DNA of 64,000 bases, from the sequence record OR352955.1; one strand, 5' to 3'. A program made the position numbers and the translations under genes. The DNA comes from Escherichia phage AV125. Within the stretch, counting starts at the first letter, position 1; every line of letters starts with the position of its first letter. Shown piece by piece: positions 1-60,779 of the stretch. The notes beneath the pieces were generated by a model. That model saw nothing but the letters and a program-made list of their open reading frames with translations, did no database searches and was not told the DNA's origin.

Positions 1-1
1 T

Positions 2-313
2 CATGAAGGTAATTTTATTGAAAACTTAGACGATTATGATTTTTCTCCTAGCGCGGACGAACGGATCGCCCAGGATGTAACAGCCTTTATTAATGCTAAT
101 CTTGCCGCTATCTCTGAGGCAATGAGCGACGGCGCAACAGCCAACCAGATCGGGAATGATTTACATTTTACCCGTAACGGTCACGGCGTAGGCTTTTGGG
201 ATCGCCCTGAAATATACACCACTAACACGGCGAACCGCCTAACCAATGCAGCTAAGTTTATGCCGAACGTGTCGGCTTACATTGGTGAAGATAATTTGAT
301 TTATATTGAATAA
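2..313 (+). CDS. hypothetical protein, 3' portion (gene begins upstream of window)
   Basis: Reading frame is open from position 2 with no stop until 313; track ORF 122..313 is the tail of it. Confidence 0.5.
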   Translation, partial: HEGNFIENLDDYDFSPSADERIAQDVTAFINANLAAISEAMSDGATANQIGNDLHFTRNGHGVGFWDRPEIYTTNTANRLTNAAKFMPNVSAYIGEDNLIYIE

Positions 314-319
314 AAAGTA

Positions 320-347
320 TTGACACAGATCGCCAGTGTGCTAATAT
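320..347 (+). promoter_or_regulatory. sigma70-like early promoter (TTGACA-N16-TAATAT)
   Basis: TTGACA at 320-325, TAATAT at 342-347; followed by CCACGTAGGGC element shared with promoter at 1629. Confidence 0.55.
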
Positions 348-394
348 TTACCACGTAGGGCGGCAATGGTGCCGCCGATAATGAGGAAAGTAAA

Positions 395-694
395 ATGGAA
401 ACTATCGCTATTGTTACCGTAGAAAAACTGGTTGTTGGTGATGTATTCGCGTTAATGGTGCCTAACAGCAGCAAGCTGGGCGCTTATGAAGTAATGGATC
501 ATAAAAATGAATCATTTGGCGACGGTTGCACAATGGCGGTAAAATCTTTAAAGGATGGAATCATCCGCCAGGCTAACTGGCACAAAGGGAATCAAGTCGG
601 TTTAATATCAGCTAATTTCTTGCCAGAAGAGCAAACGTTAGACCAACTATCAGGCGGTAAGACGTTAGCCGAACTACTGGAAACAGCGATCTAA
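395..694 (+). CDS. hypothetical protein
   Basis: 99-aa ORF with GAGGAAAG RBS upstream; no recognisable motif. Confidence 0.55.
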   Translation: METIAIVTVEKLVVGDVFALMVPNSSKLGAYEVMDHKNESFGDGCTMAVKSLKDGIIRQANWHKGNQVGLISANFLPEEQTLDQLSGGKTLAELLETAI

Positions 695-738
695 TCAACA
701 AAGGGGCGGCAACGCCCCACATCAGAAAGGAAAAGATT

Positions 739-975
739 ATGAGTATTGCAACAGTATTAAACGCCGTTAAAACCGCTGAATCATCCGGCTTGCATGTTGA
801 GCTTATAGATCAACCAGGTGGCGATCTCCTTGTCCAGGTTTACCCGCCGAAAGTAGGGGATGATTATTATTGGGCTTATTCTGATACGTTCGAACAAGTA
901 GACACGAAAGCGATCACGGCTTTTATTTTAAAAGCTATTGAAGAAAATAACTTTCATCATAACATCAATCAATAA
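739..975 (+). CDS. hypothetical protein
   Basis: 78-aa ORF, RBS AAGGAAAAG; preceded and followed by GC hairpins (GGGGCGGCAACGCCCC, GCGGGGCGGTAACGCCCC). Confidence 0.55.
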   Translation: MSIATVLNAVKTAESSGLHVELIDQPGGDLLVQVYPPKVGDDYYWAYSDTFEQVDTKAITAFILKAIEENNFHHNINQ

Positions 976-1029
976 ACCATAAGCGGGGCGGTAACGCCCC
1001 ATTAAACGCAATAGGAAGAGGATAGACGC

Positions 1030-1320
1030 ATGAAAAAGATGATCGCAGTAGTTGCCCTGGTTGTTGGTATTAACGCGCCTGTACTGGCTAATGAGTTGCC
1101 AGAATCCATCACGCTAACCGATATCAACGCAATAAACCGGATCGGCGTTAATTATCGCCTATGCCTTGCCGCTAAAACTTTCCAGGACGGCACGACAGAA
1201 TACCACGGATTCGAGGGTATCCGCTGCGGTGAGCTTGCACGCGACCTTAAGGAAGATCCAGACCTTGAGGCCATACCGATGACCGTAAACGGTAAAGCTT
1301 ACGTAAACCGCCAACAATGA
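1030..1320 (+). CDS. secreted or periplasmic protein (N-terminal signal peptide)
   Basis: 96 aa; N-terminus MKKMIAVVALVVGINAPVLA is signal-peptide-like; RBS GGAAGAGG. Confidence 0.55.
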   Translation: MKKMIAVVALVVGINAPVLANELPESITLTDINAINRIGVNYRLCLAAKTFQDGTTEYHGFEGIRCGELARDLKEDPDLEAIPMTVNGKAYVNRQQ

Positions 1321-1451
1321 GAAAGGTAATCATCACAATGGGGATCATAGTAGCGACACTGGCGCTTATCCCCTTCATGGTTGAATATGTGCTGATCAGT
1401 GTTGTCCTGGTAGTCAGTGACCTATTGGAAACGGTTGGCAACTGGTTTTAA
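1317..1451 (+). CDS. small hydrophobic membrane protein (44 aa)
   Basis: ATG overlaps upstream stop (ATGA); translation MRKVIITMGIIVATLALIPFMVEYVLISVVLVVSDLLETVGNWF is one predicted TM segment; below track size cut-off. Confidence 0.4.
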   Translation: MRKVIITMGIIVATLALIPFMVEYVLISVVLVVSDLLETVGNWF

Positions 1452-1628
1452 AAATAAGAAAAACAGGACTTGTTTTTGTTCTGTTTTTTGTTATACTTAT
1501 TGAACGGGCGGCACCTGGAAGCAGGGGAAGATAATCACCGGAAGACCCCGCTATATATTGATAACTAACGCCTATCAAACAACAAAACATCAAAGGAATA
1601 AACTATCAAATCTTTACAATTCTACCTA

Positions 1629-1657
1629 TTGACACCGGATCACGCTTACACTATTAT
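1629..1657 (+). promoter_or_regulatory. sigma70-like early promoter (TTGACA-N17-TATTAT)
   Basis: TTGACA 1629-1634, TATTAT 1652-1657, then ATCACGTAGGGC; near-identical to promoter at 320. Confidence 0.6.
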
Positions 1658-1703
1658 TTATCACGTAGGGCAAACAATTTTAAACGGTAAACGAGGAATC
1701 ACC

Positions 1704-2087
1704 ATGAGCAATATCATCAACCTGGCAGCGACTGTAAACGGTAAAGACTTTAACGGCGCTGTAGACCGTGATCCTATGTGGTGCTTGTCAGTGTTTAAAG
1801 GCGATCTGGTTGAAGTTAGAACAACCGAAGGTTATAGCGATGATTATAAATGCGAGATTCATTTACATAATTGGTACACGGGTAAAACTTATGCGCTGAA
1901 TCACGCGTTTATCGGGAAAATTGAATATCGCGAGATGATCGACGATGAAACGGGGCAAGATTTTAGCGAAAACGTTTATATTCGTTCCGAGACATTAGCC
2001 GAACGTTTGATCGAGAAAATGAAAGCAAAAAATAAAATTAATTTATCTCATTGGATTGATATAACAAATGATCCGGCTTATCAGTAA
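1704..2087 (+). CDS. hypothetical protein
   Basis: Track ORF 1629..2087 would overlap the promoter; internal ATG at 1704 has RBS GAGGAA (MSNIINLAATVNGK...), 127 aa. Confidence 0.55.
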   Translation: MSNIINLAATVNGKDFNGAVDRDPMWCLSVFKGDLVEVRTTEGYSDDYKCEIHLHNWYTGKTYALNHAFIGKIEYREMIDDETGQDFSENVYIRSETLAERLIEKMKAKNKINLSHWIDITNDPAYQ

Positions 2088-2103
2088 ATAACATTTCATA
2101 CCA

Positions 2104-2130
2104 GGGCGCATCAAGCGCCCTTTCTTTTTG
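2104..2130 (+). terminator. rho-independent terminator
   Basis: GGGCGC-atcaa-GCGCCC hairpin followed by TTTCTTTTT. Confidence 0.7.
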
Positions 2131-2134
2131 CCCG

Positions 2135-3648
2135 AATAATGTTGATAGCTTTCGCCTATGAAAAACCGACACAGAACAAAACTGAATAAATCACGGTATC
2201 GAGCTAATCGACCATTAAACGAATAACCATACATCCCAGGGCAACAGGCTGTTAGAGAGCTATTTAGAGCGGTTAAAATCGATCAACAACCAACAACAAA
2301 CCATCAAAAACACCCTTTTACCTCTTTTCTAGTGCAATGATAACCATTATCATCTATCATTGATTATCTATTCAATATAAGTGCATAACTATAATGTTGA
2401 TAATAGTTCGCAACAACTAACCAACAAACAACATAAAACAATAAGCAAACTAATCATAATCAAAGGAATAATAGCAAGATGACTGATAACGACAAACAAT
2501 CAAACCATGATGAATATTAAACAAGATAACGATAACACGACAAAACAACCAACTAACGAACAATAACAAACGAAACCATTAAAAGATCAACTATTAGCAA
2601 AATAGTGTATATTGCCATAATAGTGACTGAATGAAATCATTACAAAACGAATCATTCCAAGGATCATCATTAGCACGCTACGCCGGACACGTAGCGAGCT
2701 AATAATAAGCCAACTACACCCCAACAATCATAACCATCGGTGATGGTTATTTCTTGTTACTGCGTAGCTTGCAATAATTGCAAGCGTAATGACGCTTACA
2801 CTTATTGCGCTGGCTTATTATTAGCATTATATGTAATTACTAAGATCATAACATTAGCGCAATAACAATAATCATTGTAATAGTTACAAGATGAGATCAT
2901 TAGCAAGATGAATAATTGCACGTAGCAACATGAGCGAATAGCGACAGGTTGCATAGTGTGCACATAGTGTATAAACATACAAGAAAATAAAGGCTAATCT
3001 TTTGGGGGCGAATACTATCGCTACGCGATATGTTGAGCACCTTCTCTTAAACGTAAATAAAATCAGAATAATCTTGATTTATTTTAGTTTTTATGTTAAT
3101 AAACGTTTAAATAATAATCATTCTCATATAAATAATAGTCTGCTTGTCATGAGCGGGATCAGTTGACAATGTTCCGTCATATGATGAAGTTGCCAAACCA
3201 TTGATAAATAAGTGTTTGTGTGATTTATAATCAAGTGGCCCACCTTGTCGCTACGTTGGTATGAGCCTTGCATAAGTCATTGAATACGAATGATAATTAT
3301 TCTCATTCGTATGATATTTGGGAATTGTCGCTGCGTGGACCTGACGGCCCGAAAATTCGCGTTAAGCACTTCTTACGTATGCGCCATGATTTTTGCCATA
3401 TGATATTGATTCTATTAGATATTCTTGCCATGATTGCCATGAAACAGGGTGTCCCGAAATAATCTCTCCCCGTAGATATTTTGGGTTACTTTTTATACAA
3501 GAGTGGGGTGTCAAAAATAATCGGTATATATAGGATAATTGATAGGAATCCCCTATGATAATTCGATTGTAATTCCCTAAGATTGATCGTATGATGTTGG
3601 TGATTGATGATTGCCATGAAAGATGGCTAACGATGAGAGGAGATTGTC
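2135..3648. other. 1.5-kb ORF-free region with strand compositional skew and short direct and inverted repeats
   Basis: No plausible ORF; 2280-2620 is A/C-rich and G-poor on the plus strand; recurring ATTAGC, TATGAT(A/G)TTG, GATTGCCATGAAA and GGGTGTC-N3-AAATAATC motifs; palindromes at about 2675-2705 and 3285-3325. Confidence 0.6.
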
Positions 3649-3993
3649 ATGCAAGAGAGTAAAAATGTTCCGTTGAGTAGTTTACGTCTAATGAAGTTTT
3701 ACAAAGCTTGGCTTGCTGGTGAGGTAGAAGGTCACACAACGAGTGGTTTGTGCATATGTTTGATTAAGTATGTAGAGGGAACATACCCTGATGAACTGTT
3801 ACCTCGTCTACAACAAGAGATGAAATCACAGTTTATTGGTGCAGGATTGGATTACAATTTCCCGTTTAATGAAGGTGGTTATGAGGAATACACCTTTGAA
3901 CATAAAAAACATATTTGCCATAAAAACAAACATCGTATACAATGGGTGCTAGATAGAATTCAAGATTATGAAGGAGAGAAAGATGACAAATAG
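3649..3993 (+). CDS. family A small protein (paralog 1 of 7)
   Basis: 114 aa; motifs FYKAWLAG, TSGLCICL, DYNFPFN, RIQWVLDRI shared with six other ORFs. Confidence 0.7.
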   Translation: MQESKNVPLSSLRLMKFYKAWLAGEVEGHTTSGLCICLIKYVEGTYPDELLPRLQQEMKSQFIGAGLDYNFPFNEGGYEEYTFEHKKHICHKNKHRIQWVLDRIQDYEGEKDDK

Positions 3994-4351
3994 TATTCCG
4001 TTGAGCAGTGCAACATTGCTTCGCTTCTATAAAGCATGGATTGCCAACTATCCTGCAATGAATCGCACAACGAGTGGCTTATGTGGTTGTCTGGTAGACT
4101 ATGTAGATGATTTTGTTGGTGATACACCTAGAGAAGAAGATAGAAAATGGCGTGATCATTTGTTGGACCGTTTGAAATATGAAATGAGGAAACAATTTAC
4201 ATGTGCAGGACTGGACTACAATCTTCCGTTCAATGCAGATTGCATGGATTACCTTTCAGAGTGTATAAACTTGGCGTGTCATACCAACACGTTACGTCTT
4301 CAGTGGGTGAAAGATCGGATTGAAGATGCAAATAATGCTTGCATTGAATAA
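3983..4351 (+). CDS. family A small protein (paralog 2 of 7)
   Basis: Start moved to ATG 3983 (RBS GGAGAG); FYKAWIAN, TSGLCGCL, DYNLPFN, RLQWVKDRI. Confidence 0.7.
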   Translation: MTNSIPLSSATLLRFYKAWIANYPAMNRTTSGLCGCLVDYVDDFVGDTPREEDRKWRDHLLDRLKYEMRKQFTCAGLDYNLPFNADCMDYLSECINLACHTNTLRLQWVKDRIEDANNACIE

Positions 4352-4400
4352 AGATGTTTGTATAATGGATGACATAACAGATAGCCAATGAGGAGATGAA

Positions 4401-4610
4401 ATGAAGAATTTGAAAACTGTCACAATGTTCTTGACTGATCCTACACGTGTGCAAGCACTGGCTAAAGCCAGCCGTGTAGCTGTAGAATTCCAAAACTTTA
4501 AGCCGTCCGTTGTGACAGGCAGTGAAACGTGTGTTATCGATTTCATTAACGAATACTTCCGAGGGAATCCGGTTGGTCGTTACTTTATTAAGGGTCTGAA
4601 GGATGCATAA
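4401..4610 (+). CDS. hypothetical protein
   Basis: 69-aa ORF, RBS GAGGAG. Confidence 0.5.
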   Translation: MKNLKTVTMFLTDPTRVQALAKASRVAVEFQNFKPSVVTGSETCVIDFINEYFRGNPVGRYFIKGLKDA

Positions 4611-4833
4611 CATGAAACGCATGAAAATTCGTATTGAGAATGATGGTGGTTATAAAGGATTGGCACATGCAAAATTTCCACTTGTGTTGGAAGCTACTGT
4701 GGAATACAGTGGGCTTGCTCATGTGCGATTCTCGAAGATGATGGAAGTGCAGGAATGGTTTTGGGACGAGATAGATGCACGAGAAGGGGAAGATTATGTT
4801 TTCTTTCCTCACGAATATGAAATTGTCTATTAA
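4603..4833 (+). CDS. hypothetical protein (paralog of 8920..9141)
   Basis: 76 aa; C-terminal EWFWDE...EGEDYVFFPHE matches EWFEED...EGCDYVFFSDE in 8920..9141. Confidence 0.5.
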   Translation: MHNMKRMKIRIENDGGYKGLAHAKFPLVLEATVEYSGLAHVRFSKMMEVQEWFWDEIDAREGEDYVFFPHEYEIVY

Positions 4834-4836
4834 GGG

Positions 4837-5085
4837 TTGTGTGCAATGATCACACCACAACAGAATGAAGCAGCAATGGATCTTCTCGATAGTTTGTATT
4901 TCGATAACTGGTACTCTGAATGTGAATGGATGAATATGCAAACTCTGAAAGAGAAGACAGAAGCGTTGATTACAGTAGATCAATTTCTTGCAGAGACGGA
5001 AAGAATGAATTATGATATGGCATCTCGCGCACGACGCGTTTCCATTTTCAATAAAATGTTAGCATTATGGGGAGGTAGAAAATGA
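4837..5085 (+). CDS. hypothetical protein
   Basis: 82-aa ORF in compact array. Confidence 0.45.
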   Translation: MCAMITPQQNEAAMDLLDSLYFDNWYSECEWMNMQTLKEKTEALITVDQFLAETERMNYDMASRARRVSIFNKMLALWGGRK

Positions 5086-5543
5086 GACAACCATCTATAC
5101 TGGAAGCGCATGTGCAATGTGTTGTAGATTATGTCAAAGAACACTCAAGTTTATTAAATGTAACCTGTGCAGTGCAAAATGATGTAGGCATTGTCTGTGT
5201 GCAACATATCTTATCTGAAACTCGTTATGAAGTATTTCGTGCCACGTTGTTTGGATGTGATCGAGTGCATGTAAACTTCCTGGACTCCAATTATCGTTAT
5301 GCTTTAGAAAATATTGATGATTATCTTCCTTGCTCTCCGACAGGATATGTAATGGTAACAGCAAACGAAGTAACACCAAGCAACAGTGAACGGGAAGCTT
5401 TGTTACGGAAGAAAATACGCCAACTGAAAATGCTGATGGAAATGCAAGAAGAGATTGAAAAAGAACTGAAAGAAGATTTTGGTATGCTTCCAAAAGACGC
5501 TTTGAAATGGTATGATGAACTAGGAGGAGAGAGCAATGTTTAA
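5082..5543 (+). CDS. hypothetical protein
   Basis: 153-aa ORF, start overlaps upstream stop; C-terminal charged coiled-coil-like segment. Confidence 0.55.
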   Translation: MRQPSILEAHVQCVVDYVKEHSSLLNVTCAVQNDVGIVCVQHILSETRYEVFRATLFGCDRVHVNFLDSNYRYALENIDDYLPCSPTGYVMVTANEVTPSNSEREALLRKKIRQLKMLMEMQEEIEKELKEDFGMLPKDALKWYDELGGESNV

Positions 5544-5994
5544 AGAAGGTCATGTCTACCGTTTCCAGGATGAGGATTATATGCGACTATATTCTACCTT
5601 TGATAACAGTATTGCGGCTATCATTGGAGAGAATTTTTTCGAGGTGTTGAGCACTGATGCAAATGGTAATATCTTGTCAATGGTTGTAATAGGTATGAGA
5701 GATGGTATTATCACTGCTGGTGATGGGGATCGTTACATAATCAATTCTGCTCATATAGATTATTTTGTTGACGGTGGTGTTCGTGGTGGTCGTGGAAAAC
5801 CCCAAGAAGAACCTGTTGATACAACAAAAGAAGAGTGGTATGTTGTAATGACTGATGACACCTGTATTTCTGGATTTGAAAGTTATGAAGAAGCTTTGAA
5901 AGAAGCAGCAGAGCATAAAATGGCTAATCCTACAGAAGAGGTTGAAGTTTATAAACGTATGGTTGTTGCTACCATCGGTGTATCTTTTGTTTAA
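5536..5994 (+). CDS. family B protein (tandem paralog 1 of 3)
   Basis: N-terminus MFKEGHVYRFQDED shared with next two genes (MFKVGFVYNFKSED, MFKANAVYCFKSKA); internal I(I/T)(E/A)AG motif. Confidence 0.6.
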   Translation: MFKEGHVYRFQDEDYMRLYSTFDNSIAAIIGENFFEVLSTDANGNILSMVVIGMRDGIITAGDGDRYIINSAHIDYFVDGGVRGGRGKPQEEPVDTTKEEWYVVMTDDTCISGFESYEEALKEAAEHKMANPTEEVEVYKRMVVATIGVSFV

Positions 5995-6006
5995 AAGGGG
6001 AATGTT

Positions 6007-6792
6007 ATGTTTAAAGTAGGTTTTGTTTATAATTTCAAATCGGAAGATACCAAAAAGAATTTTGGTAAAGCTAGTATTGGTAACGCTTTCTTTGTAGGTT
6101 GCATTCAAGATAGCAAGTTTAAAGTTTTGGATGTTGATTTTCTTGGTTCTGTATCTAAGGTGAAGGTATTAGACACAAATAAAATCATCGAAGCTGGTTC
6201 TGGGCTTTTCCCTGAAGGTTATAAGCTTGTAAGTTGTATGGATTATACTCGTTTTGAAGAACATACTCCTGAAGATTATGAAGATTCTCCTACAGGAGGC
6301 TGTGTCTTTGTAGAAGGTGGTGTCTATAAGTTTGCAAGTGAACAAGATCGTAAGCTTTTCGCCAATTATATTGACGGCGGACAAACGACAAACAATGTAA
6401 ACCGAAAAATTTCCGATCTTATTGGCGATGATCCTTTCGTGATCACAAAGATGGTTGGACAAGATGTAACAGCAATCCGTAGGCTTGTATGTAATACAAA
6501 TCATGTAGCAGGTGAAGGCTGGTTCAAGGAAGCTTGTGCGCTGCTAATCAAAAGCGATAACCCTTATTTTAAAAATATTAAAGATGTTGTTGAGCCTAAA
6601 CAAGAGGAATCCGCAGCGAATTTTAAACACTATGCTATTGTTAAAGGTATGAATGTCCAACTGGTGTCACATTCTTACGAAGAGATCGCCACAGAAGCAA
6701 AAAAGATGAAAGAAGAATACCCAATTTCTACTGTTGAGATCTATGAGCGTATTGGTGTTGTTAGTATTGAGCCTACTGCGGTAATAAAATAA
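6007..6792 (+). CDS. family B protein (tandem paralog 2 of 3, longer)
   Basis: 261 aa; N-terminal domain paralogous to 5536 and 6802 genes. Confidence 0.6.
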   Translation: MFKVGFVYNFKSEDTKKNFGKASIGNAFFVGCIQDSKFKVLDVDFLGSVSKVKVLDTNKIIEAGSGLFPEGYKLVSCMDYTRFEEHTPEDYEDSPTGGCVFVEGGVYKFASEQDRKLFANYIDGGQTTNNVNRKISDLIGDDPFVITKMVGQDVTAIRRLVCNTNHVAGEGWFKEACALLIKSDNPYFKNIKDVVEPKQEESAANFKHYAIVKGMNVQLVSHSYEEIATEAKKMKEEYPISTVEIYERIGVVSIEPTAVIK

Positions 6793-6801
6793 GGAGCTAT
6801 T

Positions 6802-7239
6802 ATGTTCAAAGCTAATGCTGTTTACTGTTTCAAAAGCAAAGCTGCATGTGAAGCTTTCTCTACAATCTCTGATGAAAATTTCAAAATGGCAGCTTTGATT
6901 GAAGGGTCTTGTTTCCGCGTCGAAGATGTTAGTGAATCAGGATCTGTTTGCTCGTTGACTTTATTGGACAGCGGAGATATTATTGAAGCTGGACAGTATC
7001 CGTTCAGAAGTTGGGAGATATTGTTAGCTCGTGGAGAGCGTAACTTTTTTATGTGCGTGTCTGCGGGGGAAGTTGTGAAAGAAACTAAGGATGTTTCTGT
7101 TTACAATTCTGAATTTATAAGTTATAGTGAGTATCAACATCTGGAAGGCATTGTTGGTCACTTGTTATCTCTGATTGACATTGAATGTGACTTGCCTGAA
7201 TCATTGAAAGAAGAGTTGAAAGCATTAGATCTGCTGTAA
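6802..7239 (+). CDS. family B protein (tandem paralog 3 of 3)
   Basis: 145 aa; MFKANAVYCFKSKA...DIIEAG. Confidence 0.6.
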   Translation: MFKANAVYCFKSKAACEAFSTISDENFKMAALIEGSCFRVEDVSESGSVCSLTLLDSGDIIEAGQYPFRSWEILLARGERNFFMCVSAGEVVKETKDVSVYNSEFISYSEYQHLEGIVGHLLSLIDIECDLPESLKEELKALDLL

Positions 7240-7266
7240 TGTTCCGCACAACGAAAGGAGAATAAA

Positions 7267-7566
7267 ATGAATCTGACCGAACAGTTACGCCGTATTGCAA
7301 AAGAAGCTTCCTTCAACTTCCCTGTTGAAGAAGTGATCGAGACATGTTTTGCTGAAGCACGAGCGGGAAACTCTTCAAGAAATTTCACGCCATCTGATTT
7401 TGGTCTGGATAATTCCCCTACCCACCCAGGGGAGATCTACAATCAGGTGAAGTGGATGGATGAAGCAGTAGCAATTCTTCGTGAGCGTGGGCTTATTGTT
7501 TATAAAGAAATGGATCTGAACGGGGCATACGAGTGGATCACTATTGATTGGTCGGAGGTGAAATAA
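7267..7566 (+). CDS. hypothetical protein
   Basis: 99-aa ORF, RBS AAGGAG. Confidence 0.55.
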   Translation: MNLTEQLRRIAKEASFNFPVEEVIETCFAEARAGNSSRNFTPSDFGLDNSPTHPGEIYNQVKWMDEAVAILRERGLIVYKEMDLNGAYEWITIDWSEVK

Positions 7567-7775
7567 TGGTTACTATCACATTGACAGTTACACAAGAGCA
7601 AGCAGAAGAATTACGTGATGCAGTGGCATACATGGGACGCTCTTATTATATGCCTTATAAATCACAAGATGTTTTTGCTACAGCCATTGAGAAAGCTTTA
7701 AACAAATATCGAGAAACTCATGCCGTTCCTAAAGTATCGGCGGAAGAGTTTGGCACTTGGCACGAAGTTCACTGA
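7566..7775 (+). CDS. hypothetical protein
   Basis: Start taken at ATG 7566 (RBS GGAGGTG); 69 aa. Confidence 0.5.
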   Translation: MVTITLTVTQEQAEELRDAVAYMGRSYYMPYKSQDVFATAIEKALNKYRETHAVPKVSAEEFGTWHEVH

Positions 7776-7785
7776 GGAGGTTTCG

Positions 7786-8019
7786 ATGAAAGGTAACAAG
7801 ATGAAAGTTAATCAAGTGCCGAGCGCATACACTTTGTGGCTTGCGCGAGCGTTACACCAGACGATCAAAAACCCTAAGAAGCCAATGAAGAGCGGGAAGA
7901 AGTTTATGTCTAAGGGCAAAACAACCTTTGGCTTCACTCGTATGTCTGTTAAGATGAAAAGACTGGGGTACAAGCCAAACTACGCTCGTTACCCTTCTGA
8001 ATACAACTGGTTTGACTAA
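7786..8019 (+). CDS. basic small protein
   Basis: Start at ATG 7786 (RBS GGAGG); Lys/Arg-rich 77 aa. Confidence 0.5.
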   Translation: MKGNKMKVNQVPSAYTLWLARALHQTIKNPKKPMKSGKKFMSKGKTTFGFTRMSVKMKRLGYKPNYARYPSEYNWFD

Positions 8020-8032
8020 AAGGAGGAAGATT

Positions 8033-8209
8033 ATGGCTACTTTTCAACAATTGAAAGATGTTTCACGTTTAGTAAGAAAAATCCGAGAAGCAGACGCTGC
8101 TGTGCGGAATGCATTAACGCCAGCAGAGCGTGAAGATCTTGAAGAGGAGGTTAAAACAGCCGAGAATGCTTTTGCTGTGTATCTTTCAACACTGTACACA
8201 GGGGGTTAA
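8033..8209 (+). CDS. hypothetical protein
   Basis: Start at ATG 8033 (RBS AAGGAGGAAG); 58 aa. Confidence 0.5.
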   Translation: MATFQQLKDVSRLVRKIREADAAVRNALTPAEREDLEEEVKTAENAFAVYLSTLYTGG

Positions 8210-8524
8210 ATGTCAGAAGAACTTAAAGAATTTTATCAAGCCTATCATAATTGGCTGTTAGCTGGTGCTCCAGATAATAATCCTTTCTGGCACGATAAAG
8301 GTTTGTGCAGTTGCCTCTATCTTTGGTCTGGTGGTTATGATGACCTAAATTATGAAATGCAAATGCAATTTCGAGAAGCAGGATTGTCTGAAGAATACCC
8401 GTTTGATGACGGAGACTGGTTTAAATATGATTTTGCACAAAGAAACGGGCTATTGCATTTGAATGCTGCCCGTATAAGATGGGTAAAAGATCATGCTACA
8501 CAGGAGGATGTGCAATGCCAATAG
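8210..8524 (+). CDS. family A small protein (paralog 3 of 7)
   Basis: FYQAYHNWLLAGAP, KGLCSCL, EEYPFD, RIRWVKDH. Confidence 0.7.
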   Translation: MSEELKEFYQAYHNWLLAGAPDNNPFWHDKGLCSCLYLWSGGYDDLNYEMQMQFREAGLSEEYPFDDGDWFKYDFAQRNGLLHLNAARIRWVKDHATQEDVQCQ

Positions 8525-8715
8525 TGTTTAGTTTCTTGGTAATTGTTATGGTTGTTCTTTTCGCGGCATGGCTTTGGGATTTTGACCCAGGAGCAGCGCA
8601 GCAAAGAGCTACAGACTGGAAAGAACAATGTATTGTGCTCAAACATGAACGAAATGCAGAGAAATTTCTTGACCTGGAGTGTGATCGCCTTGTAAGATAC
8701 AAGCAAGACAAATAA
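8515..8715 (+). CDS. small membrane protein
   Basis: Start at ATG 8515; MPIVFSFLVIVMVVLFAAWLW is one predicted TM segment. Confidence 0.45.
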   Translation: MPIVFSFLVIVMVVLFAAWLWDFDPGAAQQRATDWKEQCIVLKHERNAEKFLDLECDRLVRYKQDK

Positions 8716-8729
8716 CCTTGAGGTGCAAA

Positions 8730-8918
8730 ATGGTAATTGAGATTAAACTTGAGTATGCTGGCGCTGTTGCTCTGATCGCACAAATGCTTGGAGCAAAGAT
8801 TGAAGAAGTGTATATCAACGCTTGGAGCGTAGAGATTGATGTTCCTATGGACAACATTGCTAATCGCTTGCTGGTGGCAGAGTGTGAACGCACCAACATA
8901 ATCTACAAAGGAGCATAA
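8730..8918 (+). CDS. hypothetical protein
   Basis: Start at ATG 8730 (RBS GAGGTG); 62 aa. Confidence 0.45.
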   Translation: MVIEIKLEYAGAVALIAQMLGAKIEEVYINAWSVEIDVPMDNIANRLLVAECERTNIIYKGA

Positions 8919-8919
8919 T

Positions 8920-9141
8920 ATGAAAATTAGAGTTTGTGATGTATTGGGTTATGTTGGTTTTGAGAATGTTCAGATTCCTTTTGTTGTTGAAGCACATCTT
9001 GTTAGTGAGGATATGACAACATTCTTTGTTACGATAGAAGAAATGTCCAAAGTTGAGGGATGGGAGTGGTTTGAAGAAGATGTTTGGGAAGGTTGTGATT
9101 ACGTATTCTTCTCTGATGAAGTGAATGTTCTTTCGGAGTAG
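8920..9141 (+). CDS. hypothetical protein (paralog of 4603..4833)
   Basis: Shares EWF...DYVFF C-terminal motif with 4603..4833. Confidence 0.5.
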   Translation: MKIRVCDVLGYVGFENVQIPFVVEAHLVSEDMTTFFVTIEEMSKVEGWEWFEEDVWEGCDYVFFSDEVNVLSE

Positions 9142-9143
9142 GT

Positions 9144-9350
9144 ATGTCTTGTTTTACAAAAGCAGTATCCATATGTAAGAAACAGTATGAAAGTGATTAC
9201 GGAATATTTAATATTCCAGCGGATCATACAGAGTATTGTTCATGTGGTGGCAGAATGAAGAAAACAGTGATTTATGCGGATAATGGAGATGAACTTGTTC
9301 CGGTTATTGTTTGCAAAGCTTGTCATTCTGTTAAAACATTAAAAGCGTAA
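9144..9350 (+). CDS. small Cys-rich protein
   Basis: 68 aa; CSCGG ... CKAC spaced cysteine pairs. Confidence 0.45.
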   Translation: MSCFTKAVSICKKQYESDYGIFNIPADHTEYCSCGGRMKKTVIYADNGDELVPVIVCKACHSVKTLKA

Positions 9351-9445
9351 GGAGTCGGGACACCCGACGATTGGAGCTAAAAATTTTGCGTACAACCCTT
9401 TTCGCCCAACAGGGGCGCGTCGGGTAAATAAAGAGGAGAGTTTAT

Positions 9446-9844
9446 ATGAAAAAGATCATCGTAGGTTTCTTGTTACTCATTGCATCACTTGGAACAGCAA
9501 ATGCGTCTCAAGTTTATGAGTGTGTGTCAGATGTGGTTGTTAAAAATCTGAAAGGTGAAGTGATTTCTGGTCCTAAGAAAATGGCTTCTGTTGTCATTAA
9601 TAAAGATAACTCCTTTATCCTTAAAAATTCAGGCGGTGCTTTGATGAGTGGCATTCTGCAATACACAGGAGAAAAAAGTAAAGATGGTAGTGCTATGTAC
9701 GGTTCACAACAATTTATTGGCACTACTGAAGTTGTGATGATGCGCACAGAGTATCGAGACACTTTGGCTTGGTTTGCATTTCTAAAAAATGATAAAACAA
9801 TAACGAATGTTCTTACTCTAGAAGCTGATTGTACGCAACGATAA
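9446..9844 (+). CDS. secreted protein (signal peptide)
   Basis: 132 aa; MKKIIVGFLLLIASLGTANAS signal-peptide-like; RBS AGAGGAGAG. Confidence 0.6.
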   Translation: MKKIIVGFLLLIASLGTANASQVYECVSDVVVKNLKGEVISGPKKMASVVINKDNSFILKNSGGALMSGILQYTGEKSKDGSAMYGSQQFIGTTEVVMMRTEYRDTLAWFAFLKNDKTITNVLTLEADCTQR

Positions 9845-9854
9845 GGGAGTATTT

Positions 9855-10301
9855 ATGACTAAAGTGCGACATTATGCTGTAAACTGCAATGATGTTTGGC
9901 GTTTGTGTCCTGATGATCCGACAGAAGGCACATTTGTAAGATATGAGGATTATAAAGAGTTATCGGATGCTGTGATCGCATTGTTAACTGATATCCGTTC
10001 ACGTTATCCAGGACAAGATTTCACTTGCCCTCACATCAAACTTCTTGCTTGTCTGGTAGAAGGTGAGAAAGAAGTGGAAGATGGCTTCAAGCGTGTAGAG
10101 TATCAAGGTGAAACTTTAGAGGTTCCTGAATTTGTTAATTATATTGCAACAGATTCGAGTGGCGAGCGTTATGGCTACAGCCATAAGCCAGAGATTCCTG
10201 ATTGGATTCCCGCTTGGAGATATTCCGTTAGTACCGGAGACTATATCTTCCTTGGTGTAGGTAGTAGTAAGGATTGGCGTTTCTCTTTGACAGAGGTTTA
10301 A
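9855..10301 (+). CDS. hypothetical protein
   Basis: 148-aa ORF. Confidence 0.55.
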   Translation: MTKVRHYAVNCNDVWRLCPDDPTEGTFVRYEDYKELSDAVIALLTDIRSRYPGQDFTCPHIKLLACLVEGEKEVEDGFKRVEYQGETLEVPEFVNYIATDSSGERYGYSHKPEIPDWIPAWRYSVSTGDYIFLGVGSSKDWRFSLTEV

Positions 10302-10305
10302 TAAT

Positions 10306-10569
10306 ATGGAAGAAACATTGCCAGCAGCATATCGTTTGAATGATGAGCGTATTTGGGAGTGGACCGACGTTTCTTGTTTTTACCCTGAAATAGTTCAATA
10401 TTGGCGAGCGAAAGGGTGTGTTGTAGTTATCAACCCTTGTGGACCAGTAGATGAAGATTGCTTGTATCTCGATGGGAAGTGGCACAGTTATTGTCGCTGG
10501 GCTTTTGAGTGGATGTGTAAAGAAGATCTCCCAGAGGGTTGGGAGTATCCAAAAGCAAATAGGAGATAA
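10306..10569 (+). CDS. hypothetical protein
   Basis: 87-aa ORF, Trp/Cys-rich. Confidence 0.5.
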   Translation: MEETLPAAYRLNDERIWEWTDVSCFYPEIVQYWRAKGCVVVINPCGPVDEDCLYLDGKWHSYCRWAFEWMCKEDLPEGWEYPKANRR

Positions 10570-10570
10570 T

Positions 10571-10933
10571 ATGTCTAAAGATTTTGTTGAAGTATTTGTC
10601 AAAGATGAAGAAACTGGTTTAGGCACGGGTTTCATTTGTGAAGAAACTTTTAAGCGTGAACAAGAAAAAGCTATTCTTATGCACCGCTATGATCATGCAT
10701 TAGAACAATGGAAAAATGCAGAACAAAAATGCAAAAACCTTTATGCAGAAAATAGAAAACTACAAGATCAAATGGAGTTGTTAGCTATCAGTTTACGATC
10801 TCTCATTTTGGCTGTAGAAGACGGTTTTAAAAATCCAGATGGTTTTCCTGTGAGCGATATTGAACATGATTTGTATCTTGCTCGTGGTGCTTACTTTTAT
10901 GTTAAACAGAAGTCTGTAGAAGGAGAGAAGTGA
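10571..10933 (+). CDS. hypothetical protein
   Basis: Start at ATG 10571 (RBS GGAG); the track ORF 10451..10933 would overlap the upstream gene in another frame. Confidence 0.5.
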   Translation: MSKDFVEVFVKDEETGLGTGFICEETFKREQEKAILMHRYDHALEQWKNAEQKCKNLYAENRKLQDQMELLAISLRSLILAVEDGFKNPDGFPVSDIEHDLYLARGAYFYVKQKSVEGEK

Positions 10934-11130
10934 TGGAAGAAAAACTGGAACGTATTATCGAGTTAGCCATGTCTATTGGCTACGACGATTGTTTTCTCCA
11001 AACTATTGGAGAAACACAGAACGATTACGACTCTTGGGTGAAAGAGTTGGAAGAACTCAAAACTTCCTTGATTGCTGACTTTGCTGAAGCAGAGGATAAA
11101 GCGGATCGTTACAACTATCTGTGTCGATAA
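10930..11130 (+). CDS. hypothetical protein
   Basis: 66-aa acidic ORF. Confidence 0.45.
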   Translation: MMEEKLERIIELAMSIGYDDCFLQTIGETQNDYDSWVKELEELKTSLIADFAEAEDKADRYNYLCR

Positions 11131-11134
11131 ACCT

Positions 11135-11163
11135 TGACATTTCTTTTATGTATGGTATACATA
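11135..11163 (+). promoter_or_regulatory. possible sigma70-like promoter
   Basis: TTGACA at 11135-11140 with TATACA-like -10 about 16-17 bp downstream. Confidence 0.35.
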
Positions 11164-11192
11164 CATTATCAACGTGAGCAAGGTGGTGTAAT

Positions 11193-11465
11193 ATGAATAA
11201 AGATCGGTTTCTTTCTTTAGTCGCGGAAGCGCCTTTTGATGTTCTTGGGGTGAGATTATGGAAAGACAGAAACTATGGGTTAGATGTTCAAACATATTCT
11301 CTTTGGTTGGTTGGGGAGCACAGCTTAGATGAAAGCTTGTGCATGGGTAGGGATTCTCGTTCCCTTTGTTTAAAGTTTAGAAGCTTAGAACGCGCAAACA
11401 AAGAGCAAGAAAAACTAACGAGGTGGCTAAATGAAAACAAGCGCAGGGTTGATGGAGTTTTATAA
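11193..11465 (+). CDS. hypothetical protein
   Basis: 90-aa ORF, RBS AAGGTGG. Confidence 0.5.
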   Translation: MNKDRFLSLVAEAPFDVLGVRLWKDRNYGLDVQTYSLWLVGEHSLDESLCMGRDSRSLCLKFRSLERANKEQEKLTRWLNENKRRVDGVL

Positions 11466-11757
11466 AATTTATCTAGCATGGATTGATGTTGGTGCTCCTG
11501 ATGGTAAACCTTTTCGGCGGGATTGTGGTTTGTGTGCCAACTTGTTCGATTATGTGCACAGAGGTAATTACAATCCCCTTATAACAACCTTGTCAGATGA
11601 AATGCACGCACAGTTTTACCACAAAGGGTTGAGTCAAGAATTACCCTTCAATGAGAACTACGATGCATATGTCTTAGAATCAGATGCAGGGGTATGTCAC
11701 CTGAACGTGGACAGGATTAATTGGGTAAGAGATCGTATTGCAGAGGAGGATGAATAA
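11431..11757 (+). CDS. family A small protein (paralog 4 of 7)
   Basis: FYKIYLAWIDVGAP, CGLCANL, ELPFN, RINWVRDRI. Confidence 0.7.
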   Translation: MKTSAGLMEFYKIYLAWIDVGAPDGKPFRRDCGLCANLFDYVHRGNYNPLITTLSDEMHAQFYHKGLSQELPFNENYDAYVLESDAGVCHLNVDRINWVRDRIAEEDE

Positions 11758-11984
11758 TGTCGGATTATAACTGGTATGAACTTGAAGCTGTTTGTCAGTT
11801 TTATGATTCAATAGTTCTGCGTGATCCAATCTGTCAAGAATTAAGTCGCCGTGCAAGTGCATTGGCAATCCGTGTTAAAATAAACGGTTGGAACGCAGAT
11901 TTGGAAAAAGAGTTGGCATTTCTCTTAGAAAACACGCGGGTCTTCCGCAAAGTGTTCCCTGAATGGTTTGAGATGGAGGAATAA
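11757..11984 (+). CDS. hypothetical protein
   Basis: 75-aa ORF, ATGA start-stop overlap. Confidence 0.5.
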   Translation: MSDYNWYELEAVCQFYDSIVLRDPICQELSRRASALAIRVKINGWNADLEKELAFLLENTRVFRKVFPEWFEMEE

Positions 11985-11986
11985 CC

Positions 11987-12202
11987 ATGTGGATTGTCCG
12001 TCTTAAATATGATGGTCCAGGTTCTTGGGTGCATAATGTTTGTGGTTGCGATTCCGAAGAAGCAGCACACAAAGCAGGAAGAGCAGTAAGTGCCTTCTAT
12101 AATGACAAACCTCTTTGTTTAGAGATGGCAGGTGTGGTGAGCATGAGTATGTTTGAATACTACTCCTATGATATTAAAAAACATGAAGGAGAGTGGAAAT
12201 GA
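11987..12202 (+). CDS. hypothetical protein
   Basis: 71-aa ORF. Confidence 0.5.
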   Translation: MWIVRLKYDGPGSWVHNVCGCDSEEAAHKAGRAVSAFYNDKPLCLEMAGVVSMSMFEYYSYDIKKHEGEWK

Positions 12203-12519
12203 GCGAAGAACTATTAACATTTTACCGCACGTATTTGGCATGGTTGGAAGCTGGTGCTCCTGAAGGTGAACCGTTCACCCGTTGCACAGGTTTGTGCTCT
12301 AACCTCTATGATTTTTACGATATGGGGGAAAGCGAACGATACGAACCTGTACTGGATGAAATGCATGAGCAGTTCTACCGCAAAGATTTGGTTATGGTAT
12401 TGCCTTTCAACAGTAATTTTGGAAAGTACACCTTAGAAGCGGAAAAAAGCCGCTGTCATTTGAATGTGGATCGTGTGAACTGGGTAAAAGAACGTGTAGC
12501 AGAAGAAATAATTGGTTGA
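12199..12519 (+). CDS. family A small protein (paralog 5 of 7)
   Basis: Start at ATG 12199; FYRTYLAWLEAGAP, TGLCSNL, VLPFN, RVNWVKERV. Confidence 0.7.
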   Translation: MSEELLTFYRTYLAWLEAGAPEGEPFTRCTGLCSNLYDFYDMGESERYEPVLDEMHEQFYRKDLVMVLPFNSNFGKYTLEAEKSRCHLNVDRVNWVKERVAEEIIG

Positions 12520-12573
12520 CAGAAGGATCTGTCTTTGTCATAATCATCTCATCGAAACAGAGAGGAGAAAATC

Positions 12574-12987
12574 ATGAAAAAATTTATTTGCACCCGTTCC
12601 ACTAACAGTGATATCCTTGTAGGTAAGGTTATCAAAGGAGAACTCTTCCATGCAAATGGTAAGAAATATATCCTGCTGAAAGATTCTTTCAACGGGGAAT
12701 ATCCGCGCTGCACTTTCTTTAATTACAACACTCCATTTGCTTTAGAAGGAGATGCTTGGGAATGGGCTGAACTCAATCCTTGTTGTGAAGAAGAAGAATC
12801 TATGTTCTTAGGTTTAAACGTTTACCGTGTAGATTACACCATGTGCGGAGCGGAACATTCTGTTCGCGTAGAAGCCGAATCCAAACTACAAGCACCTTTC
12901 AAGGCAGGATTGACTTTGGGTCATTGTTTGGCAAACATTGAAGATGTTGTGATCCAAAGAGTTGTTTTAGAGAAAGAGGCTATTTGA
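12574..12987 (+). CDS. hypothetical protein
   Basis: 137-aa ORF, RBS GAGAGGAGA. Confidence 0.55.
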   Translation: MKKFICTRSTNSDILVGKVIKGELFHANGKKYILLKDSFNGEYPRCTFFNYNTPFALEGDAWEWAELNPCCEEEESMFLGLNVYRVDYTMCGAEHSVRVEAESKLQAPFKAGLTLGHCLANIEDVVIQRVVLEKEAI

Positions 12988-13041
12988 CAGAAGACGGTAC
13001 AATATTTAAAATATAAAGATTAACCACAAAAGGAGAGAAAC

Positions 13042-13341
13042 ATGCAAGTTGAAGACCTGATCAAGATTCTGAATAAAGCCAAAGAGAAGGGTGCTATCAA
13101 AGACTGGAAACGTGAAACAAGTGAAGACCTATCTCACTGTTGCCGAGAATTTTACATCGAAGGTATTGCTGACGATCATTATATTATCGAATGGTATATC
13201 AACTTAATGACTCTTAAGCACGGTTCGTTTGAGGTTTGGTTTGATGATATTGATGTAAATGGTTTTCATCCTGGCTATAAAATCGCTATGCAGTTATCTT
13301 ATCGTAGAGAAGTTGTAGCACATTTGGGTTTACATAACTAA
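13042..13341 (+). CDS. hypothetical protein
   Basis: 99-aa ORF, RBS AAAGGAGAG. Confidence 0.55.
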   Translation: MQVEDLIKILNKAKEKGAIKDWKRETSEDLSHCCREFYIEGIADDHYIIEWYINLMTLKHGSFEVWFDDIDVNGFHPGYKIAMQLSYRREVVAHLGLHN

Positions 13342-42901: not shown

Positions 42902-43341
42902 TGATTAGTATCATCTGCTTTCGCAGGATCATAAGAGTTACCGAAATCATCCATCTTAATATGTGACGCACCCCAACCTGTAAATTCTTCATCACCAAAA
43001 TGAAAAATATCATTTTCTTGATAGATTCGTTTAAAACCACAATTAGGTGAAACAGGGAAAGTGAAAAGCGTTGTATTTGCAAACACTACTCGCTTATCGT
43101 TATTGCTTCGGATATTCACATTACGCTCAACAGAATAGTGTGAATCTTCAGCCATACCCAGCATTACAAGCGACGCTCTAATAACAGCATTTTGTTTCTC
43201 GTGTGGGATATTGCCATTGTGTTTATTTGATTCTAGTTTCCAGATAGGGGTAGACATTACAGTAGACATGCTTACGGTAGCCCAAGTTGTAGTATTTACT
43301 AATGACATATTTTCTCCTTCATTTTGAATGGGAGGACTCAC
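42898..43341 (-). CDS. hypothetical protein
   Basis: 147-aa ORF. Confidence 0.5.
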   Translation of the reverse strand: MSPPIQNEGENMSLVNTTTWATVSMSTVMSTPIWKLESNKHNGNIPHEKQNAVIRASLVMLGMAEDSHYSVERNVNIRSNNDKRVVFANTTLFTFPVSPNCGFKRIYQENDIFHFGDEEFTGWGASHIKMDDFGNSYDPAKADDTNQ

Positions 43342-43406
43342 CTCCTCCCAGTATTGTGCTATATTATACTAAAACTAATACTAAAGTCAATAACTATTTA
43401 AACAGA

Positions 43407-59894: not shown

Positions 59895-59966
59895 GGCCCT
59901 GTAGCTCAATGGGAGAGCTGTCGGCTCATAACCGATAGGTAGCTGGATCGAAACCAGCCAGGGCCA
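59895..59966 (+). tRNA. tRNA-Met (anticodon CAT; could also be Ile2 or initiator)
   Basis: Cloverleaf folded by hand: acceptor GGCCCTG/CAGGGCC, anticodon loop CTCATAA, T-loop ATCGAAA; CCA encoded. Confidence 0.8.
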
Positions 59967-59971
59967 CCAAA

Positions 59972-60043
59972 GTCTTTATGGTGTAATGGATAGCACAGGA
60001 GTCTTCTAAACTCTTAGTCAAGGTTCGATTCCTTGTAAAGACA
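59972..60043 (+). tRNA. tRNA-Arg (anticodon TCT)
   Basis: Acceptor GTCTTTA/TAAAGAC, anticodon loop CTTCTAA, T-arm CAAGG-TTCGATT-CCTTG; CCA encoded. Confidence 0.8.
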
Positions 60044-60242
60044 CCAGAACATTTTAACATGAATTAGCTCAAGTGATTTGAACCCACTACTGATCATGGT
60101 GGCAGAGAATGAGGCAAGTATGTCAGACATTATAAACAAAGGCCACGGTTATATTAGAAGACATAAATGCTCGAAGAGCACCGTTCGTGGAGAACGGGGG
60201 TTGGTGGAGTCACCATTCATGGTAAAATGTTTTAAAAAACTA

Positions 60243-60271
60243 TTGACAACAAACATTATTTTATGTTAGAT
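60243..60271 (+). promoter_or_regulatory. sigma70-like promoter within tRNA cluster
   Basis: TTGACA 60243-60248, 17-bp spacer, TTAGAT; 10 nt before tRNA-Ser. Confidence 0.55.
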
Positions 60272-60280
60272 TATAAGTAT

Positions 60281-60368
60281 GGAAGGGCAAATCGATGTGG
60301 CGACGAAAACGGTCTTGAAAACCGCCGAGCTTGAAAGAGCCTTGGGAGTTCGACTCTCCCTCCTTCCG
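60281..60368 (+). tRNA. tRNA-Ser (anticodon TGA), class II
   Basis: Acceptor GGAAGGG/TCCTTCC, anticodon loop CTTGAAA, long variable arm, T-arm GGGAG-TTCGACT-CTCCC; CCA encoded. Confidence 0.8.
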
Positions 60369-60376
60369 CCAGATTA

Positions 60377-60459: not shown

Positions 60460-60461
60460 CC

Positions 60462-60677: not shown

Positions 60678-60686
60678 CCAAATTAA

Positions 60687-60769: not shown

Positions 60770-60779
60770 CCAGAATTAT

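Follow-up and report, generated by a model that had tools for sequence, protein, structure and literature searches.

The stretch analysed here, called the window throughout, comprises 64,000 nt of the genome of Escherichia phage AV125 (OR352955.1), and the elements in question are two promoters near its start, P320 and P1629, which share a near-identical block beginning at the -10 hexamer and extending beyond it. It is well supported that these promoters are the two terminal members of an early-cassette family of about 20 copies in phAPEC8/phi92-like myophages, in which a promoter is followed by a conserved start box and a GC hairpin. The window belongs to Phapecoctavirus (phAPEC8-like, Stephanstirmvirinae, about 150 kb), as its positions 1–2400 are 98.6% identical to Escherichia phage KKP 3954 of that genus and match about 200 related records. 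The features of the region are listed below.

310–319, plus strand: A-rich, UP-element-like tract adjoining the -35 of P320 and holding the TAA stop (311–313) of the preceding gene
320–347, plus strand: P320 core promoter, with TTGACA at 320–325, a 16-nt spacer, TAATAT at 342–347 and a TG before the -10
348–361, plus strand: P320 start box TTACCACGTAGGGC, family consensus nTAYCACRTAGGGCGG
359–376, plus strand: P320 leader hairpin GGCGGCA-AUGG-UGCCGCC, 7 bp with a 4-nt loop
383–397, plus strand: translation signals of the first gene of the P320 unit, Shine-Dalgarno GAGGA at 383–387 and ATG at 395–397
395–694, 739–975, 1030–1320 and 1317–1451, plus strand: four small orphan genes under P320, from the list of open reading frames (ORFs)
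703–718, plus strand: promoter-less intergenic hairpin GGGGCGGCAACGCCCC, the left repeat copy flanking gene 739–975 (-14.1 kcal/mol, z -4.4)
985–1000, plus strand: promoter-less intergenic hairpin GGGGCGGTAACGCCCC, the right repeat copy flanking gene 739–975
1458–1489, plus strand: terminator-like hairpin with T-run at the end of the P320 unit, from the terminator scan
1629–1657, plus strand: P1629 core promoter, with TTGACA at 1629–1634, a 17-nt spacer and TATTAT at 1652–1657
1658–1671, plus strand: P1629 start box TTATCACGTAGGGC, with predicted start G1665 and no hairpin after it
1704–2087, plus strand: Gp30.8-like gene under P1629 (Pfam PF06019, Phage_30_8, E 1.8e-28)
2103–2121, plus strand: end of the early array, a hairpin resembling an intrinsic terminator, AGGGCGCATCAAGCGCCCT, with TTTCTTTTT after it

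The four genes of the P320 unit matched only PHROG families of unknown function and nothing in Pfam, and phi92 gp248, a relative of the gene under P1629, carries the annotation 'Gp30.8-like protein'. On the plus strand of this region, the terminator scan flagged 1458–1489 and 2103–2121 only.

An earlier, sequence-only reading of this DNA had described both promoters and the block beyond the -10; its letters match the window, and the block was found to be real and non-random. The degenerate 20-mer TAWTATTTAYCACGTAGGGC occurs at 342–361 and 1652–1671, with no third match at up to three mismatches in the window. By chance, 0.02 matches per window are expected, and none of 100 shuffles gave two, which rules out a chance likeness of the two blocks. 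The shorter CACGTAGGGC has exactly two copies in the window, at P320 and P1629; of its matches with one mismatch, at 19559 and 61155, neither follows a promoter at the right distance. The site at 61155, in an inter-tRNA spacer and not at cassette spacing, was also considered as a cassette and rejected for its position between tRNA genes and this spacing. That the remaining promoters of the window are devoid of the element was likewise confirmed, since no further box was found at strong -35/-10 matches on either strand, and a covariance model of box plus hairpin gave a single window match, at 348–379.

Pairwise alignment of P320 and P1629 revealed no similarity between their spacers. Identity starts at the -10 and ends at GGGC in P1629, and P320 continues into its hairpin, GGCAATGGTGCCGCC. 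This hairpin folds at -14.2 kcal/mol (z -3.61, with none of 200 shuffles as stable), starts 4 nt past the predicted start G355 and has no U-tract after its stem. The leader of P1629, in contrast, is unstructured (-0.9 kcal/mol, z +1.4). A shared leader structure, as proposed by the sequence-only reading, is therefore present at P320 and absent at P1629, and what the two promoters have in common is the start box, not structure.

The larger family becomes visible in close relatives. Position 1 of the window corresponds to position 3354 of KKP 3954, minus strand, so that the side upstream of the window is KKP 3354 and beyond. A whole-genome nhmmer search of KKP 3954 returned 15 strong copies (E < 1e-14) and about six weaker ones around the motif YCACRTAGGGC, and the covariance-model search returned 16. 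The copies lie on one strand at record positions 2976–10942, directly upstream of the window-equivalent start, each in a gap of about 90 bp before a small hypothetical gene. The array thus holds 16–21 copies in 8 kb, preceding genes of 96–387 nt annotated as hypothetical, in a region that is mosaic among relatives; aligned on this record, most of the array precedes the start of the window. Over the rest of the genome (about 139 kb), the covariance model gave no match, and nhmmer gave one copy at 32496, one marginal match near 110.9 kb and weak hairpin-only relatives. About 17 copies each were found in the Justusliebigvirus phages phi92 and EmilieFrey. A lack of further copies, which had been named as what would speak against a meaningful element, is not what was observed: some 16–20 more are present upstream in close relatives.

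Conservation along the cassette was quantified on 73 unique copies from six phages. The order of parts is A-tract, TTGACA, 16–17 nt, TAnnnT, start box, GC hairpin, linker, Shine-Dalgarno and ATG. The A-tract at about -45 to -40 carries 0.9–1.3 bits, the anchoring TTGACA hexamer 2 bits, and the spacer 0–0.5 bit per column. The box nTAYCACRTAGGGCGG reaches 0.7–1.5 bits per column, with a peak at TAG. After the hairpin comes an A/C-rich tail (e.g., CACAACAGAAGAGAGA), and then a GAG/GGA-type Shine-Dalgarno sequence and the ATG. A drifting spacer and a conserved box, only six bases apart, indicate selection on the box or very short-patch conversion, and not mere recency of the copies. The box shows neither dyad nor direct-repeat symmetry. 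A sigma-70-dependent pause element was considered for it and rejected on inspection of the consensus, which contains no -10-like hexamer of the form nAnnnT.

The transcript start is predicted at the R of CAC-R-TAG, that is, G355 in P320 and G1665 in P1629, the eighth nucleotide after the -10. RNA polymerase favours a purine start after a pyrimidine, 7–8 nt past the -10, and bases 7 and 8 after the -10 (which ends at 347 or 1657) are C and G; the assignment follows from this spacing and from the pyrimidine(-1)/purine(+1) preference. Further support for this placement comes from a variant cassette, TATAAT-ACTTAT-ATCGAGAG, whose A aligns with the start R.

The leader hairpin is a conserved feature of the family. 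The folding energy of cassette leaders is typically -14 to -16 kcal/mol (median z -4.1 relative to shuffled sequences), and their stems have the form GGGCGG...CCGCYC. In 42 of 59 copies, pairing starts 11–12 nt beyond the -10, which would leave 3–4 unpaired nucleotides if the start is the seventh or eighth. Variants of the arms keep their pairing (GGCA/TGCC, GGGAA/TTCCC, GGGAAA/TTTCCC, GGGGAAA/TTTCCCC and GGTGG/CCACC). Standard pairs occupy 95.3% of pair cells, compared with 89.6 ± 1.1% in shuffles (0/500 as high) and 31–72% in slid registers, in counts biased towards the model, which was built from one hairpin length class with the others aligned by Infernal. One stem pair, never found unpaired, occurs as CG in 20 distinct sequences and as GC in 13; another is GU in 19, GC in 15 and AU in 3, and the second pair of the stem is GU in 19/40. 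Overall, G(5')·U(3') pairs outnumber U·G pairs by 28 to 5, and this one-sidedness argues for a sense-strand RNA structure, and not for a DNA palindrome or an antisense RNA.

Several known element types were considered for the hairpin and set aside. An intrinsic terminator was rejected for want of a U-run, the 8 nt after the stem containing a mean of 1.4 T (typically CACAACAG), with no T-run on either strand. An RNase III site was rejected on stem shortness, stems of 8–10 bp being too short for this enzyme. A known RNA family was rejected because no Rfam match was obtained over the 13-kb array at permissive thresholds. A lambda/rrn boxA after the hairpin was considered since many copies read CGCTCACAACAG, and was rejected as CGCTC belongs to the stem arm and the tail is variable (ACAACAGA, ACTGAAAA, AAATCAAA and others), with no boxA (CGCUCUUUA / UGCUCUUUAACAA). 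In addition, a MAFFT alignment of all hairpin classes was dropped as structurally inconsistent.

Two other sites in the window combine a promoter-like sequence with a hairpin ahead of a gene. On the minus strand at 43304–43400, the strong promoter-like elements TTGACT, 16 nt and TATAAT are followed by the 5'-proximal hairpin GGGAGGA-GGUGAG-UCCUCCC (-14.9 kcal/mol), AAGGAG and an ATG, an arrangement that has the architecture of the cassette without its box and with an unrelated stem sequence (43337–43358). Also on the minus strand, from 22833 down to about 22740, TTGACA, 18 nt and TATAGT precede a terminator-like hairpin with a T-run, AAAGCCTCCTGTTTCAGGGGGCTTTTCTTTT, which lies before a Shine-Dalgarno sequence; this hairpin may be a leader attenuator, or may terminate the upstream gene from a position behind the promoter of the next one.

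Comparison with relatives explains how P1629 came to lack a hairpin. In PD06, ESCO5 and phi92, the orthologue of P1629, with the same flank and spacer, is followed by box, hairpin and a gp247-like gene. The Gp30.8-like gene gp248 of the relatives has its own weak promoter-like stretch ending TTATCGTGTAGGGC, then AAACAATTTTAAACGG, without a hairpin. Alignment A6 shows identity between the window and the PD06 gp247 promoter as far as ...CACGTAGG, and between the window and the pre-gp248 leader of PD06/phi92 from GTAGGGCAAACAATTTT / GTAGGGCAAACAATT onward. Read from these alignments, it is well supported that P1629 is a chimera with a crossover in GTAGG (1665–1669), joining a gp247-like promoter to the leader of a Gp30.8-like gene; either the hairpin and the gp247-like gene were lost in this event, or they were gained in its reverse. 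On this evidence, what P1629 shares with P320 as a 19-nt element is the joint at which two box copies recombined.

Altogether, four independent joints between relatives were found in window 1–2400, each in a box or a hairpin. The gp247 indel just described has a box on either side. Furthermore, hairpins 703–718 and 985–1000 are identical at 15/16 positions and form a direct repeat around gene 739–975. Phage ukendt does not contain window 719–984, and with it this gene, and retains one hairpin at the joint with the outer flanks kept; the phi92 counterpart of the gene has another location, where it is preceded by a complete promoter cassette that matches 703–718 in its 3' half. In ESCO5, the match to the window stops at 1671, the last base of the box, where a hairpin and different genes follow, and it resumes at about 2100, at the terminator hairpin 2103–2121. 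Similarity of phi92 to the P320 region stops at 370, within the hairpin, and another gene follows. Orthologous promoters are paired with different hairpins and genes in different phages. ESCO5 also carries at 9320–9434 a 55-bp tandem duplication of the P320 cassette, with TGACACAGATCGCCAGTGTGCTAATATTTACCACGTAGGGCGGCAATGGTGCCGC present twice, which places two promoters and two hairpins in series before its orthologue of gene 395–694. As a separate observation, the terminator AGGGCGCATCAAGCGCCCTTTCTTTTT after the Gp30.8-like gene (2103–2121) recurs almost identically in the KKP 3954 array at 6154–6174, and terminators, like promoters, appear to be reused modules.

Cassettes of related design occur outside this group of phages. 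Vequintavirus (magaca) has cassettes of like layout with a looser box, and Asteriusvirus UE-S1 (358 kb) has TATAAT-nTTTACAT followed by unrelated GC hairpins at equal distance. In UE-S1, many early-type promoters at 1148–13240 also contain a spacer palindrome, (CA)GTACTG, directly before TATAAT, together with the TTTACAT start and the 5' hairpin; this palindrome may be a class-specific element of jumbo coliphages. A host origin of the element was ruled out: blastn, with its 49 nt as query, matched none of 5,426 complete E. coli genomes.

T5-like phages (Epseptimavirus / Tequintavirus) contain CTAATATTTATCACGTAGGGCGGCAATG, which shares 26–27 of 28 nt with the cassette and comprises -10, box and 5' arm. 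It belongs to a promoter-like site in the terminal repeat (pre-early), upstream of a small ORF and of the A2 and A1 genes. Like the cassettes, it precedes genes that are carried on the DNA entering the cell first. Unlike them, it occurs at one or two places per record (two where both terminal repeats are present) and not in an array, has a weaker -35 (TTGCGC), and lacks the 3' arm, having instead a different hairpin followed by the boxA-like TGCTCTTTAAAAA. A box in DNA that is expressed on entry suggests a role involving host machinery over one for a lineage-specific regulator. In the left terminal repeat of chee130_1 (2490–2580), TAATAT TTATCACGTAGGGCGGCAATG is followed by the hairpin GGCGGGGAAGTTTACCGCC and then by TGCTCTTTAAAAA, upstream of the small ORF, A2 and A1. 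This last sequence agrees at 11/13 positions with E. coli rrn boxA (TGCTCTTTAACAA), and the order boxB then boxA is that of rrn. Among the top-ranked matches of a literature search on T5 pre-early genes and boxA, the term 'boxA' was absent.

What is judged, with some reserve, to be the probable explanation is that the cassettes are strong host-type early promoters with a fixed start and a stabilising 5' hairpin, in which the repeated block doubles as a recombination substrate. Host sigma-70 RNA polymerase would read TTGACA/TAnnnT, aided by the UP-like A-tract, and the start box nTAYCACRTAGGGCGG would fix +1 at the R of CAC-R-UAG; the strength of these promoters is predicted from their consensus alone. 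The transcript would begin R-U-A-(G), with the hairpin directly after 3–4 unpaired 5' nucleotides. In E. coli, 5' secondary structure stabilises mRNA because RppH and the 5' sensor of RNase E require single-stranded 5' ends, the accepted reason why 5' stem-loops such as those of ompA and papA are stabilising (PMC3997798). A GC hairpin of 8–10 bp, 3–4 nt from the 5' end, would be expected to hinder decay by RppH and then RNase E, to raise early expression and to insulate the ribosome site, in its A/C-rich and unstructured linker, from upstream sequence. Finally, the direct repeat of about 35 bp formed by box and hairpin, with a copy ahead of almost all genes, would serve as a substrate for homologous recombination, by which gene modules could be inserted, deleted or swapped, and this shuffling role may be a by-product or a co-selected property of the repeat. 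What we infer for the family is where transcripts start, that the hairpin stabilises them and that they are made early.

Several points weigh against this explanation. P1629 and the native gp248 leader have no hairpin, so that the hairpin is not obligatory, and in the T5-like copy the box is accompanied by the hairpin's 5' arm alone, which suggests a role of its own for the box. Sequence conservation of the box and of the loop (AAUGG/AAUAG) goes beyond what a generic stabiliser would require, so that a specific binding factor or short-patch gene conversion may also have a part in it. In addition, the 3–4 unpaired nucleotides might leave the RppH step not fully blocked. Both-side variation was seen in only 2/8 modelled pairs, in an alignment fitted to the model. 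The ends of BLAST high-scoring pairs across six arrays peak at -6 to +36 of the cassettes (3–4 per nt vs 0.03–0.3 per nt in genes), in line with joints at cassettes, but this density is descriptive only, as these ends are non-independent and are pulled into conserved cassettes by extension. A literature search found no start-site mapping or half-life data for Phapecoctavirus, phi92 or rV5.

The conservation of the box could also be read as that of a DNA operator, over which a phage or host protein bound at -6 to +12 would shut off or co-activate the early class. Some 15 bp conserved over the start in about 20 promoters with drifting spacers are the footprint expected of a class regulator, and the box persists without a complete hairpin in P1629 and in the T5-like copy. 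This is nevertheless unlikely: the box lacks dyad or direct-repeat symmetry, the only palindrome is the hairpin, and in its half-sites sequence and length are variable and G·T occurs, which is incompatible with a fixed DNA half-site. Its presence in T5-like phages, another family, counts against a lineage-specific repressor, and the negative result in the 5,426 E. coli genomes means that it was not copied from the host. The 'common regulator site' of the sequence-only reading is for these reasons not favoured: the box has no dyad, the variable palindrome keeps its pairing, and the sense-strand G·U pairs point to RNA. The 5' end and hairpin of all early transcripts could instead be an RNA element recognised by a dedicated protein, for example an antiterminator of the nut type, a regulator of translation or a processing enzyme. 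The loop and its closing pairs (AAUGG/AAUAG), as well as the UAG before the stem, are partly conserved; most array genes are without intervening terminators, so that control of read-through could matter; and the T5-like box is followed by a boxB-like hairpin and the near-boxA sequence mentioned above. Such an element is improbable, however, as the sequence after the hairpin in this family is variable, A/C-rich and not boxA-like, CGCUC belongs to the stem, and quite different stems stand at the same position (e.g., GGGAGGA/UCCUCCC at window 43337–43358, minus strand); the shortness of the stems for RNase III and the lack of an Rfam match also tell against it. A related and rather improbable proposal is that box and hairpin, with their UAG, GGCGG stem and AAUGG/AAUAG loop, constitute a specific recognition module shared horizontally among Stephanstirmvirinae, Vequintavirinae and the T5-like pre-early region, whose reader would act on the whole early class, perhaps as an RNA-binding protein that links protection of the 5' end, translation or anti-termination, or as a helper of recombination by which gene cassettes are mobilised.

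The hairpin has further been weighed as a terminator or attenuator of transcription from the upstream gene, with the box as part of a composite element, as in the PeSL elements of phages RB49 and phi1. PeSL stem-loops cut lacZ expression about as much as rrnB T1 (PMC2839356), and the array has almost no separate terminators. This is very unlikely here, because neither strand has a T-run and the hairpin lies downstream of each gene's own promoter, where a strong terminator would kill its own transcript; T-run terminators, moreover, exist separately at 1458–1489 and 2103–2121. Equally hard to credit is the absence of any selected function past the promoter, with the block a product of recent duplication and short-patch conversion and the P1629 box a scar. 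Hairpins have indeed been exchanged between orthologous cassettes, the 55-bp ESCO5 duplication is of this kind, and the P1629 crossover falls within the box. Stems with compensatory changes and matched indels, at a fixed distance from the -10, are nevertheless not expected from conversion alone, the architecture recurs with unrelated stems in Vequintavirus and Asteriusvirus, and T5-like phages retain the box. A strong promoter with a fixed start and a protective 5' hairpin is hence still the preferred explanation.

If this explanation is correct, dozens of tiny orphan early genes in 150-kb coliphages would each receive a standard plug-in expression unit, made up of a promoter, a set 5' end, a hairpin for protection and a ribosome site, and the same unit would permit genes to be shuffled between phages with their regulation intact. 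In practical terms, the 'PHIRE promoter' labels in GenBank could be corrected, and the cassettes could supply compact natural promoter and 5' untranslated region parts for E. coli and could show where insertions are safe when phages of this group are engineered for therapy.

Two neighbouring regions of the window are described for context. Positions 2090–3640, about 1.5 kb without credible ORFs and with A/C repeats (caacaa, aacaaac) and short AT-rich motifs, separate the last early gene from the next gene block (3649 onward). The phi92 counterpart leads to an annotated right direct terminal repeat of 343 bp, and rV5 carries a comparable 'non-coding' box; by this analysis, the region is probably a physical genome end or a packaging region. 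At 59895–61906, 10 tRNA genes are clustered, with strong promoter-like sites between them (e.g., 60243 and 61211).

Parts of the cassette have been recorded before. The phAPEC8 record JX561091 annotates 20-mers as 'putative promoter determined with PHIRE' (GTAGGGCGG...); ten were read out, including GTAGGGCGGCAATGGTGCCG, which equals window 355–374. Most of these 20-mers directly follow sigma-70-type promoters, four of which are annotated 'host dependent promoter' (MEME). Judged by sequence, the label as promoter would be wrong and the 20-mer would be transcribed leader, as a complete -35/-10 precedes it and it reaches from the start site to the hairpin's 3' arm. The cassette is therefore not a new principle; elements of its kind are known, and the repeat had been annotated previously but not understood.

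Among known systems, the lambda nut and rrn boxB-boxA sites likewise have a promoter-proximal RNA hairpin followed by a linear motif beginning CGCUC. In the present family, however, CGCUC is the 3' arm of the stem, the sequence after it is variable, and there is no N-like or boxA consensus. A parallel is provided by the 5' stabiliser stem-loops of ompA and papA (Emory, Bouvet and Belasco, 1992, as cited in PMC3997798), in which a stable hairpin a few nucleotides from the 5' end (here a predicted one) is combined with an unstructured leader and a ribosome site, and for which protection from RppH/RNase E is the proposed effect here. The present element differs in being repeated about 20 times and coupled to a start box, and it has no sequence relationship to either.

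The nearest described counterpart is PeSL, a repeated intergenic cassette of about 100 bp that brings together a tract rich in A and T, a consensus sigma-70 early promoter, a stem-loop with G- and C-tracts, a Shine-Dalgarno sequence and an ATG (Arbiol et al., 2010, PMC2839356). It was described in the T4-type phages RB49, phi1, PST and nt-1, in connection with hyperplastic regions, indels and mini-circles (PMC2839356; Comeau et al., 2014, PMC4122927). Its stem-loops occupy five positions, mostly in or upstream of the promoter, and have measured terminator activity (PMC2839356). The present family resembles PeSL in its sigma-70-type promoter with an upstream AT-rich tract (seen across the 73 unique cassettes), in its adjacent stable G/C stem-loop (-14 to -16 kcal/mol, 95.3% paired), in its many intergenic copies within a variable region rich in small orphan genes, and in the indel and replacement joints inside cassettes, including the stem-loop (the four joints of window 1–2400). 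It differs in lineage, being found in Stephanstirmvirinae and not in T4-like phages, in a hairpin that is fixed in the leader about 4 nt past the predicted start, and in its additional conserved start box. Terminator features are also lacking in its sequence, with no T-run and a stem downstream of the promoter. As far as sequence comparison can tell, the family would be PeSL-like with regard to shuffling and not a strict PeSL member; if so, the PeSL idea would reach beyond T4-type phages to at least two, possibly four, further groups.

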